In this document: positions 7,060 to 31,358 of the stretch, in pieces | How positions within the stretch are numbered: position 1 is the stretch's first letter | Layout of the letters: each line of letters begins with the position of its first letter | Virus record (IMG/VR): IMGVR_UViG_3300042393_000070 | Location: 1-31,358 of that record | DNA from: a virus | Taxonomy: Duplodnaviria; Caudoviricetes | Length of the DNA stretch: 31,358 bases | Direction: 5' to 3' (one strand) | The notes under the pieces: generated by a model | What the model was told of the DNA's origin: nothing | What the model saw: only the letters and a program-made list of their open reading frames with translations | Database searches by the model: none | Position numbers and translations under genes: made by a program

Positions 7060-7550
7060 AAAAAAACCGTTGCACCTAAACAAACATCAAGTGGAGCAAA
7101 CTTCATAACCTCTGCATAAGTTATACTTCCATTGTAATCTTCAATCTCATATGTCCCATTTAAACCTTTCTTTTTAATTGGTCTATACAATACTGCCATT
7201 GCTTTATGTATCTCATCCCAATCAGTAATATACGTATCTAAATCAGTATATTCTCCAAATGTCATTTCATCTAAATTAGGAATAAAACCAAATTCAGTAC
7301 CACCCATTTTAAAAGTAGGTATAAAAGAATGATTCTGGTTAAACATATTTCCAATAGATGTAGTTATATCATTTACATCTTTATATTTAATCTGTGCAAC
7401 TTCTTTTAAATCTATTCCACAAAATATCTGTACCATTTTTTGATGCAGAAATTCTGTATCTTCATTGTCTTTAGCTATCTTTAAAAAAGCCTGATATTGT
7501 GAAAGTTTTATTTCACTTAATTTAGTTGGTATTGTTATTTCTAACTTCAT
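6870..7550 (-). CDS. Putative tail assembly chaperone, 0-frame product (226 aa)
   Basis: MTFGEYTDLD and MAVLYRP motifs; contains a T9 slippery run at GTT TTT TTT TAC. Confidence 0.6.
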   Translation of the reverse strand: MKLEITIPTKLSEIKLSQYQAFLKIAKDNEDTEFLHQKMVQIFCGIDLKEVAQIKYKDVNDITTSIGNMFNQNHSFIPTFKMGGTEFGFIPNLDEMTFGEYTDLDTYITDWDEIHKAMAVLYRPIKKKGLNGTYEIEDYNGSITYAEVMKFAPLDVCLGATVFFYSLGNELLKATIAYLEKDKEVQNILQQQTSDKNGDGIVQSMLLLKETLTDLTKLQDYQLTNV

Positions 7551-7598
7551 TTGTTTATTTTTTTATAATAATAAAATAAAGTCATAATTGTATTAAAC

Positions 7599-7625
7599 AA
7601 AAAAAAGCAACCATTTCTGATTGCT
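7599..7625 (-). terminator. Intrinsic terminator
   Basis: AGCAATCA-GAAA-TGGTTGCT followed by a T run. Confidence 0.8.
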
Positions 7626-7650
7626 CCTTTCAACTATTAACTAACCTTAA

Positions 7651-9582: not shown

Positions 9583-9619
9583 ATAATATCATTATTGAAT
9601 TAAAAATAAATAAAATCTA

Positions 9620-9853
9620 TTATTGTTTATCTTTAAATCCTTTTTTCAATCTCATTAAATTATTTGCTCTTTCTTTTATCTGTTTAAATTGCTCATCAAT
9701 TTTATTATGATATTCTTTTGAAATAGAATTATGCCAAAATTCGCATATATCATTGCAGTATAAACCATCAGTAAATCCAGTATTTATAATCTTACTACAC
9801 CAATGACATAATGTAGCACCTTTACCATTATTAAATTTATGTATTGGTTTCAT
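9620..9853 (-). CDS. Small Cys/His protein (77 aa)
   Basis: KFNNGKGATLCHWC ... YCNDIC; probable Zn binding. Confidence 0.65.
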   Translation of the reverse strand: MKPIHKFNNGKGATLCHWCSKIINTGFTDGLYCNDICEFWHNSISKEYHNKIDEQFKQIKERANNLMRLKKGFKDKQ

Positions 9854-10348: not shown

Positions 10349-10897
10349 TTAATTGTTTTTATTATGTTCTATTACTTTCATATTCATATCGTAGATAGCT
10401 TCTAAACGGATTATCATTACATTGTGATGTTCTGTATCTTTTGTTTGATTAAGAAGATTGTTTAAGTTGTTTATTATTTTGTATTCGTATGCTGCTTTTT
10501 CAAGTTTATTTATTCTTAAATTACTTTCTTGTAATTGTATTTCTAATTCAGATACTTTTAAGTTTTTCTTTTTAAGTTCTAATCTTAATTCTTCATTATC
10601 TTCTGTATTTAATATATTTTCTTCATCAATTTCATTTACTATTATGTTTCTTAAACTTCTTAAATCTCTATTAAACTTTTCATACATTTCATAGTTATTT
10701 AAAGAATGAATTACAGTAGCGTGATTCTTATTTACTGATTCAGCTATCTCTTGTAATGTCATTTTAGGTTTAAAATGCTTTATCAAATAGAAATATAATG
10801 CTCTTGCTTCTATTATATTATGCTTTCTACTATTTTTAGAAACATCTATATCAGTTTCTTTTAATATTATTTCTTTTAATCTTTCTGTTATTTCCAT
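10349..10897 (-). CDS. DnaA domain IV-like HTH protein with coiled coil
   Basis: SRKHNIIEARALYFYL...TLQEIAESVNKNHATVIHSL parallels the DnaA C-terminal signature. Confidence 0.75.
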   Translation of the reverse strand: MEITERLKEIILKETDIDVSKNSRKHNIIEARALYFYLIKHFKPKMTLQEIAESVNKNHATVIHSLNNYEMYEKFNRDLRSLRNIIVNEIDEENILNTEDNEELRLELKKKNLKVSELEIQLQESNLRINKLEKAAYEYKIINNLNNLLNQTKDTEHHNVMIIRLEAIYDMNMKVIEHNKNN

Positions 10898-12780: not shown

Positions 12781-13043
12781 AATTTCTCTATGTTTTGTTT
12801 AACTTCCATCCAATATTGCAATTGATGAACTATAAATCTAACTTCGTCATTTATTACTATTTTACTTTCTAAATCAGACATTGATTGGTATTCTCCAAGC
12901 ATTTCTTCAACTGCTATTAAAGAATGTTTTTTAGCCTTTCTTTTTACTTCTGTAAATCCAGTTAATTTTAATTGTATATGTAATCTACCTTCAGTTCCTA
13001 CATATTTATCATATAACTCTTGTGCTTTTTCTTTTGGTGTCAT
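12777..13043 (-). CDS. Hypothetical protein (MTPKEKAxEL family)
   Basis: MTPKEKAQEL...LIAVEE...YWMEVKQNIEKL; ATGA overlaps on both sides. Confidence 0.7.
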   Translation of the reverse strand: MTPKEKAQELYDKYVGTEGRLHIQLKLTGFTEVKRKAKKHSLIAVEEMLGEYQSMSDLESKIVINDEVRFIVHQLQYWMEVKQNIEKL

Positions 13044-13246
13044 AATTTTATATTATCTAAATTATTCATTGTTTCATCATAATTTAATACATCTCTAATC
13101 TGTTGTGCATAAGCATCTGATTCATTCCAATCTTTTACTAATGCATTAGCAATTAATTCTAATTGTTTACGTACATAAACGTTTTCAGTTGTTTCTAAAA
13201 TAGAAATGCAAGTTTCTAACTTAAATAAAATTTGTAGTTTGTCCAT
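13040..13246 (-). CDS. Hypothetical protein, first gene of an early operon
   Basis: AAACAAACAAAATG leader; promoter just upstream. Confidence 0.7.
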   Translation of the reverse strand: MDKLQILFKLETCISILETTENVYVRKQLELIANALVKDWNESDAYAQQIRDVLNYDETMNNLDNIKL

Positions 13247-13273
13247 TTTGTTTGTTTTTTAAATTGTTATACG

Positions 13274-13323
13274 CAAATGTAAACATTATTTGTTTATAAA
13301 AAACATTTTAACATAAAATTAAC
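13274..13323 (-). promoter_or_regulatory. Bacteroidota-type promoter with TTAAC-N6-TTAAC box
   Basis: TACATTTG at 13281-13274; TTAAC at 13308 and 13319. Confidence 0.7.
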
Positions 13324-13325
13324 AC

Positions 13326-13352
13326 AAAAAAAAACAATCATTTCTGATTGCT
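13326..13352 (-). terminator. Intrinsic terminator
   Basis: GCAATCA-GAAA-TGATTGT plus T run; near copy of 7599-7625. Confidence 0.8.
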
Positions 13353-15596: not shown

Positions 15597-16139
15597 TTAA
15601 TAAATTTGATTATAATCGTTGTTGGAATAATCGTCATATTCTTTTTGAAATTTTTGTTTTAAAATAATCTTATAATTTTTAATACTATGGAATATTGAAA
15701 TTAAACTAATTGTAGTTCCTGTAGCAATATCTCGCATAGATAAATCATTATCACGATATAATTTAAATAAAAGCATATCATAATGATTCCAGCTTTTTAT
15801 CTCATCATCAATTAACATACATATATCATTATATGCCTTATGTTCTTCTATGTTTGAATCATCAAATAATTCCCAGCATCCATCAATAGGTACTTTTGTT
15901 ATCTTTTTCTTTTTGTTATAATATTGGTAAAATAAAGAACGTAAAGTAAAGTATACATAACCTTTTCTTACATTGCCATTTTCGTCTATTATCTTTTCAG
16001 AAGAAGCATATTTCCATAAAGCAATATACGTTTCTTGGACTAAATCCTGTGCATAATCGTATTCACCAAATTTATTAATTATTTCAACCCATTCTTTATG
16101 GTGTTTTGCTACTTTTTCCAGCCAGTTGAAGTTGTCCAT
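15597..16139 (-). CDS. Phage-encoded sigma-70/ECF-like sigma factor
   Basis: Region 2 AQDLVQETYIALW; region 4 HTH LSMRDIATGTTISLISIFHSIK. Confidence 0.8.
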   Translation of the reverse strand: MDNFNWLEKVAKHHKEWVEIINKFGEYDYAQDLVQETYIALWKYASSEKIIDENGNVRKGYVYFTLRSLFYQYYNKKKKITKVPIDGCWELFDDSNIEEHKAYNDICMLIDDEIKSWNHYDMLLFKLYRDNDLSMRDIATGTTISLISIFHSIKNYKIILKQKFQKEYDDYSNNDYNQIY

Positions 16140-16328: not shown

Positions 16329-16625
16329 TTAAAATAATTTTGCGTTTACTTTTGCTGTTTTCTTTTCAGATATTACTTCTTTTAATTGGATTGAAAAATC
16401 AATATGCGTTAATTCAGAATCAACTTCTAATAGTTCTTCAATGCAATCAGCTATAGGTGTTAAATTATATCTTGCTTCCATATCTGTTAATTCTTGTAAA
16501 TATACAAGCTTTTCTTTTAAATCTTTAAAAAAACTTATTAACATTTTATTATCTGAATGGTAAAGTAACATTCTTTCGTTTGAAACTTGTAATTCTTCTA
16601 AATGGTTTTTAATTGTTGTTTTCAA
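16329..16625 (-). CDS. Hypothetical protein (98 aa)
   Basis: TTG start overlapping the helicase stop. Confidence 0.55.
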   Translation of the reverse strand: MKTTIKNHLEELQVSNERMLLYHSDNKMLISFFKDLKEKLVYLQELTDMEARYNLTPIADCIEELLEVDSELTHIDFSIQLKEVISEKKTAKVNAKLF

Positions 16626-17470
16626 AATATATCTTTTAATGGGTCATAAAATGCTCCTTCAACTTGTGGCAATCCAAAATTATTTACTTTAAAACTAAAG
16701 TTTTCAAATGGTGCATTTCTTGAGCGTTTACAACTTACGGTTACTAATCCTTTATTTACTGTGTTTAATTCTAATTGTATTTGTGTTTCTGTTTTCTTTT
16801 CTAAAAATGAACCTAAATGCCCTGTTGGTTTATCAGTTCCAAAGTTAGAATGTATTACTGTTACTATGTGGCAATTTAACTCCTTTGACCATTTCATTAA
16901 CTTCTGGACAACTGCATTACTTTCCTCAATATTATTTACATCACTACATAAATCAGCTATTCCGTCAATTATAACTAATCCTATATCTGTTGCTTCAAGT
17001 TTATCATAAAGATAATATTCTATAAATTCAACTCTATCTTTAAATGATAATTGCCTTAATGCTAAAGTATGGTATTTATCTGTTTTTATACCAGTCATAT
17101 CAATAGGGCGTTTAAACACATTTGCAGCGTGGAAATTGCCTTGTTCAGTGTCAAAATGTATTAGGTGCTTATTATCTCTATTTGCCTTTAAATCACCTCC
17201 AAATTGTTCTAATTCATCTGCTAAATAAATTGCCGATAATAATGACACAAAGAATGTTTTTTTACTTTTAGGAGGAGCTTGTACAAAGCTAAAATTACCA
17301 TAAGTTCCAATAGGTGTAGGATATTCTATTTTACCATCTTTAGTTTCATAACTTTTAACACCAAATGAAATTGCAGGTTTTGGATGTACTATCTTTTCTA
17401 ATGGATTAATAAAGCATTCAGCTTCAAAAACTTCCATTAATAATCTTTTCTCGTCTTTATTTAATTCCAT
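16622..17470 (-). CDS. AAA_25/RepA-like SF4 helicase-type ATPase
   Basis: Variant Walker A APPKSKKT, HFDTEQG, Walker B LVIIDGIAD, VIHSN, GHLGS. Confidence 0.8.
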   Translation of the reverse strand: MELNKDEKRLLMEVFEAECFINPLEKIVHPKPAISFGVKSYETKDGKIEYPTPIGTYGNFSFVQAPPKSKKTFFVSLLSAIYLADELEQFGGDLKANRDNKHLIHFDTEQGNFHAANVFKRPIDMTGIKTDKYHTLALRQLSFKDRVEFIEYYLYDKLEATDIGLVIIDGIADLCSDVNNIEESNAVVQKLMKWSKELNCHIVTVIHSNFGTDKPTGHLGSFLEKKTETQIQLELNTVNKGLVTVSCKRSRNAPFENFSFKVNNFGLPQVEGAFYDPLKDIF

Positions 17471-17487
17471 TTGTTTGTTTGTTTGTT

Positions 17488-17557: not shown

Positions 17558-17854
17558 TTAGAAAGGTAAATTGTCATCTAAAACTGATGCAGTCGCTTCT
17601 GCTTTTTTATCAGCAACTGAAATAGTTCCATTTGTCCAAATCACATTTCCATTACCTAAATACGTTTTAGGTTTTTTAGCTTCTCTTTCTTCTTTTGTTT
17701 GACTATCAGTTAAAGAAACATTTTGTCCCCATTGGTTAGATTCATCATTTACTCCAACTGTAAAGTTGTAATAAACTGCACCATCTTTTCCAGATACAAA
17801 TTTTTCTTTTGGTAATTTGTCAACTCTTAAACTTACATTAATTAATGCACTCAT
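17558..17854 (-). CDS. Putative single-stranded DNA-binding protein
   Basis: 98 aa, beta-rich, YLGNG motif, acidic DDNLPF C-terminal tip; follows ERF. Confidence 0.7.
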   Translation of the reverse strand: MSALINVSLRVDKLPKEKFVSGKDGAVYYNFTVGVNDESNQWGQNVSLTDSQTKEEREAKKPKTYLGNGNVIWTNGTISVADKKAEATASVLDDNLPF

Positions 17855-17911
17855 AATTTACTTATTTAATTTGTTTACCTTTTTTTACTGTTGTCAACTA
17901 TTCAGCTTTAT

Positions 17912-18735: not shown

Positions 18736-18822
18736 TTATAAATTTGTTAAAGTTAATACTAAAGTAAAAAATAATCCCCATAAAATAAATGCTAATCCGA
18801 TGTCTTTTAAATTTTGTTTCAT
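18736..18822 (-). CDS. Single-TM peptide (28 aa), first gene of an early operon
   Basis: MKQNLKDIGLAFILWGLFFTLVLTLTNL; ACACAAACAAAATG leader. Confidence 0.6.
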   Translation of the reverse strand: MKQNLKDIGLAFILWGLFFTLVLTLTNL

Positions 18823-18854
18823 TTTGTTTGTGTTTTAAGTTGTTATTTCTTTGG

Positions 18855-18900
18855 CAAATATATAACTGTTTTTCATATAAAAGTGTTAATGAAAAGTTAA
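18855..18900 (-). promoter_or_regulatory. Bacteroidota-type promoter with inverted TTAAC-N6-TTAAC box
   Basis: TATATTTG at 18862-18855; GTTAA at 18885 and 18896. Confidence 0.7.
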
Positions 18901-18912
18901 AGTTTTTAAAAT

Positions 18913-18945
18913 AAAAAAGGGACACTATTTAAAGCATCCCATTTT
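18913..18945 (-). terminator. Intrinsic terminator
   Basis: GGGATGC-TTTAAATA-GTGTCCC plus T6. Confidence 0.8.
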
Positions 18946-18993
18946 CTAACAAACAAAAACAAAAAAAGACTTAAAAGCAGTTCTTAAGGTATG

Positions 18994-19885: not shown

Positions 19886-19905
19886 ATTTACTTTGTTTTA
19901 TAATA

Positions 19906-19913
19906 CAAATATA
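19906..19913 (-). promoter_or_regulatory. Bacteroidota -7 promoter element
   Basis: TATATTTG 21 nt upstream of the ATG at 19885. Confidence 0.55.
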
Positions 19914-20001
19914 AATAAATGTTATTAACAATCTTGTTTAAAAGTTTTTAAATCAAAGTTGATTTTTTTTATATACCTTCGTGGAGTCGAAATTAATATA
20001 T

Positions 20002-28508: not shown

Positions 28509-28554
28509 AATATTTTTTTATAATAATAATTTAAACATAAAATTGTTTTAAAAC

Positions 28555-28587
28555 AAAAAAGGCATACTAATTAAAGTACACCTTTTT
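28555..28587 (-). terminator. Intrinsic terminator after tail tube gene
   Basis: AAAAGGTGTAC-TTTAATTA-GTATGCCTTTT plus T run. Confidence 0.8.
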
Positions 28588-28609
28588 AAAAAAACAAACA
28601 AACAAAATG

Positions 28610-29152
28610 TTATGCTACAGTACCTTCAACAATAGAAGCTAATATTCCTGTAGTTAATGGTCCAGTAACGAAATTAGCAGGTAATTTTTCCATACCTTGA
28701 AATTCCATTTTATAAGATGAAGCATCGCCCATTGCAGCACCTGTAGAAATAGTAGCAGTTACTAAATCCATTCCTTTTGTTAAACCTGCCATAAAATAAT
28801 TGTCATTATTATCCTGTATAATGATTTGAGGTCTTCCGTAACTTAAAAGTTTAAGTTGTTTATGGTCTGCAATAGTTAATTTTTTAATATCTAAAGTTAA
28901 TTTTTGGTCTACAAATGTAGTACCGTTATCTCTTGAACTTGTTACAGTTTGCTCAAAAGTTGAAGTTCCTTTTAATTCATATTTGTAACCAATAGGAGTA
29001 CCACCTAAAGCAGTGATTACATCCTCTTGTCCTGCAGTTGCAGAATATGTTACTGTAGTAGCATCACCCCAATTAATGAAGTAAACTGCTTTTAAACCGC
29101 CAAGACTGTCTTTACATTGAACAGCCCTTCCTAATGATATATCGCAAGGCAT
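28610..29152 (-). CDS. Putative major tail (tube) protein
   Basis: MPCDISLGR..CKDSLGGLKAVYF, SRDNGTTF, GRPQIII; follows capsid and has its own terminator. Confidence 0.65.
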   Translation of the reverse strand: MPCDISLGRAVQCKDSLGGLKAVYFINWGDATTVTYSATAGQEDVITALGGTPIGYKYELKGTSTFEQTVTSSRDNGTTFVDQKLTLDIKKLTIADHKQLKLLSYGRPQIIIQDNNDNYFMAGLTKGMDLVTATISTGAAMGDASSYKMEFQGMEKLPANFVTGPLTTGILASIVEGTVA

Positions 29153-29225: not shown

Positions 29226-30191
29226 TTAGTTAGCAGCGTTTGTAATACCATAAGTAGTAATATCAGCAACATTTCCGTATTGAACTGCAGCAGTAAAACG
29301 CATTACAACTCTAACGTTTTGTGAACCATCAACAGGAGACATATCAATCACTTGTACTTCGTTTTGGTCATTCAATAAACCTGTACCAAAATAAAGGTTA
29401 GATTTTTGAGCAGCGATAGCAACAGTTGGAGCTAATCCATTTGCAACAAATATTTTGATACCATCAAAAGAAAGTGAACCGTTGTTATACCATTGTGTTC
29501 CCATTGCGTTTGTACCATTAGCACCTAATCCAGAAGCTCCGAATCCACCTAAAGCTCTAACGTATGCTCTTGCAGTTGCTTGAGATATATAAAGATACAA
29601 ATCTTCTTTTCCGTAAAGTGCAGCAGGAATAGCATCTACTAATTTACCAAGTTCAGCAACAACAGTAGAAGCAGCAGTAATGTTAGTAGAAGTAGCAGCA
29701 ACTTCTTGAGTAGAAGGTAAACCAGCATCAGCAGTTAATAAAGCAGTAAAACCATCAAATTCTCCAGCGTTAGCAGTTACACCTTTCCAAATGTTGTTTT
29801 CAATTTTTTCAGCAACTTTAGCAGCTACGTGAGAAATCAAATAATCAGCAAATGTTGGAGGCAAAGAATCAAAAGCAGAATAACCTTGTTGGATAGCCAT
29901 CCAAGTTTGATGAAAGTCTTTTTTACAAAGTTGTAAGTTTACTTGAAATTCTTCAGGAGTGATAATTTTTTCAGCAATAGTTACAGTAGAAGTAGCACTA
30001 AAATCACAAGTTGCATTGGCAACAATAGCATCAGTGTTGATTCTGTTGATTACTTGCTTAAATTTGATATTAGGCAATACTTCAATACCACCATTTGCAA
30101 TAGTAGAACCAGAAAGTAAAGCAGCAGAAATATATTTTCCTGCAAATTCTCCAGCATAAGTAGGAGAAGTAATTGTTGTTGTAGTAGCCAT
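29226..30191 (-). CDS. Major capsid protein (321 aa)
   Basis: YAGEFAGKYISAALLSG, QVNLQLCKKDF, NLYFGTGLL; high-expression codon bias; after scaffold and before a terminator. Confidence 0.85.
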   Translation of the reverse strand: MATTTTITSPTYAGEFAGKYISAALLSGSTIANGGIEVLPNIKFKQVINRINTDAIVANATCDFSATSTVTIAEKIITPEEFQVNLQLCKKDFHQTWMAIQQGYSAFDSLPPTFADYLISHVAAKVAEKIENNIWKGVTANAGEFDGFTALLTADAGLPSTQEVAATSTNITAASTVVAELGKLVDAIPAALYGKEDLYLYISQATARAYVRALGGFGASGLGANGTNAMGTQWYNNGSLSFDGIKIFVANGLAPTVAIAAQKSNLYFGTGLLNDQNEVQVIDMSPVDGSQNVRVVMRFTAAVQYGNVADITTYGITNAAN

Positions 30192-30765: not shown

Positions 30766-31134
30766 TTATTTTACCCACATTTTTAGTTGTGATACTTCTT
30801 GTTCAACATCTTTAAACGCTTGTGACCAAGCACCTAAATTAGGAATAGGTACATCTAATTCTTCACCCATTTTATCTATTTTAGTATAAATTGGTAAACC
30901 TTCATTATATAAAGAAACTAATTTTTTCATAGACTCATCAGCTTTTACTTTTTGTTCGTCAGTTTGTTTTTTTAATGAACTTAAAGTATTTATAGATTTA
31001 TCTGCATTAATCATTTCAGCTGATATTTTTTTCAAAACAGAAACTAAATCTTGTGTTAATCCAAGTTCAACCTTTTCACTTTTTAATTCTGTTTTTCCAA
31101 ACAAAGCATTGTTTACTAATTTTTCAGTTGTCAT
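30766..31134 (-). CDS. Coiled-coil protein with KTEL/KVEL leader (possible internal head protein)
   Basis: LFGKTELKSEKVELG followed by helical heptads; within head operon. Confidence 0.65.
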   Translation of the reverse strand: MTTEKLVNNALFGKTELKSEKVELGLTQDLVSVLKKISAEMINADKSINTLSSLKKQTDEQKVKADESMKKLVSLYNEGLPIYTKIDKMGEELDVPIPNLGAWSQAFKDVEQEVSQLKMWVK

Positions 31135-31171
31135 ATTATTATTTTTTAAGTATAAATTAATATTATAAAAT

Positions 31172-31358
31172 TTTGTTATAAATTACGTTGTTCTTGTTGA
31201 AATTATATTTCCTGCACCATCTCTAACTACCGCAGTAGAACCTCCAACTAAAGTTCCTATTCCTTGTTCTGATAATTCTCCATTGCAACATTTTTGCGAG
31301 TATTTACCATCTTTGCATAAGCAACCTCTATTACCACCTGTTGGTGAACTTGTTTTTC
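31172..31358. repeat. Right copy of terminal direct repeat
   Basis: Matches 5-191 with 2 mismatches. Confidence 0.95.

Follow-up and report, generated by a model that had tools for sequence, protein, structure and literature searches.

The 3' untranslated region (UTR) of the phage mRNA that ends with the tail-tube gene carries a short U/G tract, which probably (we put this at about 0.6) serves as an antisense 'anti-leader' seed, so that the 3' tail of the mRNA would pair in trans with selected non-structural mRNAs and damp them. The tract beats shuffled sequences in its complementarity to start regions, is conserved among relatives and matches cognate leaders over foreign ones, and it is therefore likely to be a regulatory antisense element. 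The first-pass annotation of this DNA had already read the tract as antisense to early genes. This reading holds up in that the tract is conserved, predicted to be open, and covarying, but the best target across the family is a 98-aa gene that the annotation had not named.

Genomic context and the parent transcript

The window, that is, the whole 31.4-kb virus record analysed here, has a GC content of 28% and carries essentially all of its genes, the main ones included, on the - strand. It encodes a portal, a terminase, Erf, an exonuclease, NinG/Rap, an endolysin and a sigma-like protein, and the phage belongs to a widespread, aquatic Bacteroidota-type family. Start regions in the window are A-rich and lack a Shine-Dalgarno (SD) sequence. 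They resemble those of F. johnsoniae, in which, according to the available part of the report, initiation is promoted by A-3, A-6, A-12 and A-13 (PMC6847099). The features discussed below are collected in Table 1.

Table 1 Features of the window relevant to the tail-tube 3'-UTR tract
Feature	Position	Strand	Evidence or remark
Candidate anti-leader seed, 22 nt, CAU + (UUUG)n + U7	28588..28609	-	Sequence; 3'-UTR of capsid-tube mRNA
Intrinsic terminator hairpin (13 pairs) + U tract, end of head-tube transcript	28552..28587	-	Fold and terminator scan; stem 28587-28556
Tail-tube protein gene (180 aa), last of head-tube operon	28610..29152	-	ORF; fold of relative's model; 34% identical to P12024S_03
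Likely major capsid protein gene (321 aa)	29226..30191	-	Weak virion-protein PHROG match and gene position
Capsid-gene internal terminator	stem 29204-29178	-	Spacer A-rich (A 0.54, U 0.32); used as negative control
Predicted target: leader (AAAC)n of 282-aa AAA_25 ATPase gene (16622-17470)	17470..17487	-	Best predicted duplex, -16.7 kcal/mol
Predicted target: leader + AUG, 68-aa gene 13040-13246	13244..13260	-	14-nt complement, net -13.0 kcal/mol
TAnnTTTG motif upstream of 13246	13274-13281	-	Motif scan
Predicted target: leader + AUG, 28-aa gene 18736-18822	18820..18841	-	12-nt complement, net -12.1 kcal/mol
TAnnTTTG motif upstream of 18822	18855-18862	-	Motif scan
98-aa gene after Erf	17558..17880	-	Leader is best family-wide covarying partner; protein at 17558-17854
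Second candidate anti-leader tract, ninG/rap stop to terminator (18940-18919)	18941..18993	-	Tracks AAA-ATPase leader
Late-type bipartite promoter motif AACAA-N13-TTATT for next gene	28520..28549	-	Directly behind tube terminator
Similar late-type motifs	31150-31179, 7565-7594, 803-832, 9600-9629	-	Window scan
Sigma-70-region-2-like gene	15597-16139	–	Domain match

Comparison of the tube protein, whose gene stops at 28610-28612, with 50,697 annotated phage records gave four relatives, every one of them from Nonlabens phage P12024S/L (about 34% identity). Further relatives were found as prophage-like copies in two named Flavobacterium genomes, and the family is large by protein searches. The fold was assessed on a relative at the 52% level (L151), whose model aligned with the SPP1 tube at a VIA-align Z of 8.9 (rmsd 3.6 over 128 residues) and matched nine chains at Z of at least 8, nearly all of them tube-type; a Foldseek search gave tube-type matches, none at E ≤ 0.001. 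Judged by the relative's model, the product has the tail-tube fold. P12024-like phages carry another diverged tube-like domain a few kb downstream of the tube gene.

Past the tube stop the transcript reads CAUUUUGUUUGUUUGUUUUUUU, followed by AAAAA, the 13-pair hairpin and U6. The tract is predicted to be unpaired, with an opening cost of 1.25 kcal/mol at 37 °C; according to the predicted fold and the terminator scan, the seed is thus accessible and shares the terminator of its parent mRNA, as 3'-UTR-derived sRNAs do. A scan of the window for TAnnTTTG, which we take to be the Bacteroidota -7 promoter element, revealed no evident promoter of the tract's own, the nearest copy being 310 nt upstream of the seed, inside the tube CDS (28919).

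RNA data were available from thirteen runs as assembled contigs only, which cannot show RNA ends or a processed sRNA and whose missing coverage of the UTR carries no weight; in one sample (X1) several hundred relatives occur together, and DNA may be present. The capsid gene is co-transcribed with the tube gene in relatives, as a single 1.7-kb contig spans both in each of two studies (depth 9.0 and 6.7). These contigs stop at 28643 and 28627, before the UTR, no loose end is listed there, and further downstream the libraries hold only short contig pieces; taken together, this is a weak hint that one head-tube transcript ends at the tube terminator.

The late-type promoter motif stands in front of three operons (head, connector and tail); its profile was derived using 56 upstream regions with 41 distinct sites. 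The motif and the gene content make it likely that the capsid-tube mRNA is late. Another high-scoring copy, at 19902-19931 (+), points back into the lysis region.

Complementarity to start regions

All three stretches that the first-pass annotation had named as partners of the tube UTR (13244-13257, 18820-18831 and 17470-17484) were confirmed as its exact complements of 12-15 nt. The match at 17470 covers the leader, as claimed, but beyond the leader it takes in just the A of the AUG. The gene there does have an AAA_25 domain (E = 1.7e-7), the name 'helicase' given to it being an interpretation. The genes at 18822 and 13246 had been described as the first genes of early operons, and the TAnnTTTG motifs just upstream agree with this; these positions are consistent with the two being the first genes of host-sigma operons. 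A U-rich stretch without a terminator (13285-13337, -) follows the stop at 13338, upstream of the TAnnTTTG motif of 13246, and could sequester the 13246 leader in read-through transcripts.

Three of the four coding-strand matches of at least 11 nt sit at start codons, the fourth being inside a CDS at 30973. The complementarity of the start regions exceeded that of shuffled controls (P = 0.002-0.007): three starts with a match of at least 12 nt correspond to P = 0.002 in 1000 dinucleotide shuffles, and 3 of 53 starts with at least 11 nt compare with 0.22 in mononucleotide shuffles (P = 0.007). In the 1000 dinucleotide shuffles neither the longest single match (P = 0.077) nor the best energy (P = 0.11) was significant alone. 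The best three predicted duplexes among the 53 starts, net of target opening, were those at 17470, 13246 and 18822, in this order (Table 1). Of the top-three predicted targets, 21/111 were structural or lysis genes for the tube spacer, against a gene share of 34%, and 40/81 for the capsid spacer, used as a control. The suggestion that host mRNAs are targets as well found no support: a Flavobacterium genome other than that of the known host, sampled over 400 kb, had matches at 2 of its 316 starts, compared with 0.99 in shuffles (P = 0.24).

Covariation of the tract with leaders

Covariation was analysed in 49 genomes or long loci, in which each spacer was compared with cognate and foreign homologous leaders, and the double-centred matrix was evaluated by permutation; held-out pairs came from three further ninG-centred scans. 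All permutation p-values given below are inflated by relatedness and mosaicism. Among the 40 families listed, the longest cognate matches were those of 13246, 18822, the ATPase (17470) and the 98-aa gene. The first run gave z = 5.1 for the 98-aa gene, 4.0 for the ATPase, 2.9 for 18822 and 1.3 for 13246, and the control capsid spacer peaked at z = 2.5.

The signal between the tube spacer and the 98-aa leader was the most robust, with z = 5.5 (n = 35) overall, z = 2.6 (p = 0.006, n = 12) in the held-out set, 3.2-3.7 over 13-16 spacer clusters and 3.2 inside the window-type clade. None of 60 composition-kept shuffles reached it (mean 0.97, max 3.5). The ATPase leader gave z = 3.7 (n = 32), 1.5-2.3 over spacer clusters and a non-significant 0.8 (n = 7) in the held-out set, at least one of the 60 shuffles exceeding it (max 4.4), and 18822 gave z = 2.9 (n = 14), which was not significant after collapse to 2-3 spacer clusters. 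The expectation that the tract covaries with early leaders is therefore borne out for the 98-aa gene and for non-structural genes, but not for 13246, one of the named targets (z = 0.6). The best match among the four early leaders was 12.1 nt for cognate and 10.6 nt for foreign pairs (p = 0.0005). The leader of the tail operon at 7550 was rejected as a target: its z of 3.0 in the discovery set was gone in the held-out data (0.3), and in one clade the match is the AACAA half-site of the promoter. The leaders of the parent mRNA itself gave z = 0.4 (tube) and about -3.2 to -3.3 (capsid), the latter being matched less than foreign ones.

The mean cognate gain is about 1.3 nt (8.2 vs 6.9 nt); in 23 of the 35 cognate pairs the match is shorter than 10 nt. 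Reach into the start codon was no commoner in cognate (6/12) than in foreign pairs (57/128). Clear cases are genomes G012/G013, in which 15 nt of the 98-aa leader are matched, ending at the A of the AUG, two lineages in which spacer and leader have a non-repetitive word in common (13 nt in G017, 11 nt in G020), and locus L430, with a 15-nt match to the 28-aa gene. Different lineages appear to have different targets, as the window fits 17470, 13246 and 18822, and most sisters the 98-aa gene. Statistically, this pattern is that of a conserved seed with compensatory change in its predicted targets, although not in all clades. An unusual matched context was seen in L248 (G046), where the tube spacer contains CAUGG and several starts read CCAUG.

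The window's own tract matches the 98-aa leader by 7 nt only. The 98-aa protein has an acidic DLPF-type C-terminus and a small beta-rich model of good confidence (pLDDT 78), for which no structural match was found (best Z 2.5). It is the gene context and the acidic tail that suggest an SSB-like protein, and the model may possibly represent a new ssDNA-binding fold.

A second tract behind ninG

A similar tract separates the ninG/rap stop from the terminator of that gene. It tracks the AAA-ATPase leader with z = 7.4 (n = 45) and held-out z = 6.0 (n = 28), through several variant words, and this covariation is stronger than that of the tube tract with any target. The ninG spacer does not track the 98-aa leader (z = -0.3), and the capsid spacer tracks neither the ATPase nor the 98-aa leader. 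Within genomes, the tube and ninG tracts are slightly alike (z = 1.9). The spacer at a third operon end, which precedes the promoter of the tail operon, has a conserved UUGGUU/UUAGUU-type tract (window 7625-7650, -; also L280, L285, L306 and L314).

Conservation of the tract and what else could account for it

Three scans of viral sequences and one of genomes supplied the tube loci, and terminators, spacers and starts were called by custom scripts, with a few miscalls (e.g. L214, L276). All counts cover loci with a detected terminator and a spacer of 8-62 nt. UUGUUU is present in 122 of the 230 tube loci for which a terminator was called and in 73/73 close relatives (at least 75% identity, window included, redundant set), so the prediction that relatives keep the motif stands for this core. 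It fails for about half of the distant relatives, which have no tract, and for the stop-adjacent CAU, a lineage-specific element found in just 11/73 close relatives. In some clades the tube spacers are A-rich or the terminator is absent. The tube 3'-UTRs of L120, L122, L135 and L149 have short AAACAYAGTAG-type direct repeats instead of the U tract.

The cultured Nonlabens phage P12024S, whose tube protein is 34% identical, has the tract in the form CAU-UUUGUUUUGUUU; there CAUUUUGUUUUGUUU begins two bases past the tube stop, and the tract has a 13-nt match with the leader of the phage's own ATPase gene. Tandem duplicates of the tube gene occur in loci L071, L073, L074 and L076-L079. In these seven loci the tract follows the last copy only, before the terminator, and the first copy leads into an ordinary A-rich leader, which indicates that the tract belongs to the end of the transcript.

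After dereplication at 80%, U-rich spacers made up 26/59 of tube, 1/41 of capsid and 9/49 of host spacers; ninG spacers were U-rich in 14/15. TTTCAT (anti-AUGAAA), a pattern picked after inspection of the data, occurred in 10/59 tube spacers against 1.0 expected and in 0/41 capsid and 0/49 host spacers of the same dereplicated set. The spacers with TTTCAT are scattered over the tube tree, and other TTT-C-x-x hexamers were found at most twice. Enrichment of plain CAU in tube spacers was weak (18/58 vs 12.4, p = 0.04), CAU formed by a last-codon CA and the stop was not enriched (16/40 vs a background of 0.40), and a generic anti-start profile separated tube (z = 1.27) from capsid (0.77) weakly. 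TTTCAT was also seen in 10 of 78 'other' phage spacers (1.1 expected). A NAD-binding-domain host gene of Flavobacterium sp. (L359:13835-14359, -) ends in a GUUU-rich spacer resembling the phage tract.

The way in which U-rich spacers mark operon-end terminators, those of ninG and tube and to a lesser degree of the host, would also be expected if the tract were a binding or processing site for a protein (an RbpB-like RRM chaperone, bS1 or an RNase) that guards, cuts or stabilises the 3' end of the abundant mRNA, its likeness to leaders following from U-richness. U/A complementarity arises easily at 28% GC, and RbpB is described, in the available part of the FopS report, as binding single-stranded FopS regions (PMC11697453). 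Such a site does not predict cognate-over-foreign matching, distinct partners of the tube and ninG tracts or the CAU enrichment, and we regard it as unlikely; it is compatible with pairing, and the two can coexist.

Somewhat less probable is a neutral origin, through low-complexity drift or through inverted copying of terminator-leader cassettes by Erf/exonuclease recombination. The tract is of very low complexity, on the + strand it reads terminator-leader-ATG, a mirror of the 17470 junction, about half of the distant relatives do without it, and composition-kept shuffles by themselves bring the best pair to a z of about 1 on average. Drift or copying would hardly keep the tract at the same position down to 34% protein identity while leaving the capsid terminator of the same phages without it (1/41 U-rich), nor would it produce covariation that survives held-out and cluster-level tests.

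The leader motif and its inverted copy could also be DNA sites for a phage protein, serving as early-gene operators and as activator or roadblock sites ahead of downstream promoters, and would then coevolve by way of that protein. A candidate protein is present in the window (a DnaA-C HTH gene, 10349-10897), the tube and ninG tracts are slightly alike within genomes and both have a promoter-like motif downstream, and a G-U wobble/strand test was neutral, as it did not separate an RNA from a DNA cause (difference z = 0.9, best pair). However, with one protein all sites should covary together, whereas the pairing is partner-specific; in L002, L072, L090, L113 and P12024S the tract persists with other DNA following the terminator, and it has the pairing-competent orientation on the transcript. 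We consider DNA sites improbable. We rejected as highly improbable that the tract is where a + strand antisense transcript or mini-ORF into the tube gene begins, be it as start site or as late promoter. An 11-codon + strand ORF with a strong leader does start at 28607, but that ATG is present in only 11/73 close relatives and + strand late-promoter scores were -5 to -8 in 14/15 genomes and 4.3 in one, compared with at least 11.7 for the training sites.

Proposed mechanism

In the antisense reading, the pairing RNA would be the 3' tail of the capsid-tube mRNA, which is likely late, either still attached or as a fragment of about 55 nt cut from it. Acting in trans on selected non-structural mRNAs with A/C-rich start regions, it would pair with positions -15 to +3, covering the adenines at -13 to -3 and so blocking ribosome loading. 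Replication and recombination proteins (the SSB-like protein, the AAA ATPase and the products of the first early-operon genes) would thereby be wound down as packaging starts. The scheme presumes that the capsid-tube mRNA is highly abundant.

More tentatively, and in our opinion with the odds somewhat against it, the tracts could form a protein-free, multi-channel antisense timer, in which each operon-end 3'-UTR has its own seed and partner, the seeds having converged on, or been captured from, a host design of the FopS type that makes use of SD-less initiation (see below). The tube tract would then act on the SSB-like protein and the first early genes and the ninG tract on the AAA ATPase, and the most abundant structural mRNA would double as a trans repressor of replication genes while virion synthesis increases.

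If the antisense reading is correct, a simple anti-leader tail on an mRNA is enough to switch off SD-less initiation in Bacteroidota, and a rule for predicting targets from genomes would follow. It can be tested in culture, as P12024S (host Nonlabens/Persicivirga) carries the tract. [quoted passage not shown] Our literature search, whose scope left aside most subscription papers and preprint supplements, turned up no paper that describes elements of this kind for phages of Bacteroidota.

Comparison with known RNA regulators

The comparisons in this section refer to the available parts of the papers cited. The tract likely works in the manner of FopS/GcvB-type regulation, as a phage-borne 3'-UTR antisense variant of it; this analogy draws on the following likenesses. 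In FopS and GibS of B. thetaiotaomicron an intrinsic terminator comes after a U-rich seed that is single-stranded, within about 55-70 nt (PMC11697453, PMC7366714), and the predicted fold and the terminator scan give the same arrangement for the phage tract. Both act, or in the case of the phage are predicted to act, by pairing around the start codons of SD-less Bacteroidota mRNAs, FopS repressing by pairing at start codons (PMC11697453). FopS-14 is derived from a 3' end, as an RNA from the phage tract would be, and all other FopS members have their own sigma-ABfr promoter (PMC11697453). The tract described here differs in that it is encoded by a phage, where a virion operon ends, that its predicted targets are the phage's own leaders and that its seeds are lineage-specific. 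The UUUCAU (anti-AUGAAA) of relatives resembles the seed of the FopS sRNAs of Bacteroides; the window variant, unlike FopS, has no UUUUU 5' of CAU. Rfam 15, in a copy that may not include a FopS model, gave no meaningful family on the window or on 7 related loci. Given the lack of an Rfam match and only a short shared word, we do not claim membership of the tract in FopS/GibS.

The R1 seed of GcvB is likewise multi-target, pairing with ACA-containing enhancer leaders, where the phage has AAAC repeats and a G/U-rich seed (PMC3879156). GcvB differs in that it is a host sRNA of enterobacteria, stands alone and acts on mRNAs with an SD (PMC3879156), and the likeness is one of functional analogy, with no homology implied. 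In icaR of Staphylococcus aureus a 3'-UTR motif is also complementary to a translation-start region, but icaR pairs with its own SD, whereas the phage tract tracks the leaders of other genes (PMC3868564). Cis pairing of the icaR type was rejected for the phage, the tube and capsid leaders not being in the top ten duplexes and their covariation amounting to z = 0.4 and about -3.3. Temporal control by RNA pairing over the start region is known for the T4 genes e, soc, 49 and I-TevI, where local cis hairpins silence late genes early (PMC3014915). In contrast, the proposed partners in the phage are 1.5-15 kb apart, and a predicted late RNA would act on non-structural genes.

FopS-10 begins GTGTTTTTCATAG (PMC11697453). 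The word UUUUUCAUA at its 5' end is common to the tube UTRs of L113 and L183 and to several other phage UTRs. Other gene families of related phages also end in FopS-like UUUUUCAUA tracts before terminators (L086:19986, L305, L309, L299, L214:16933 and L274:15661).
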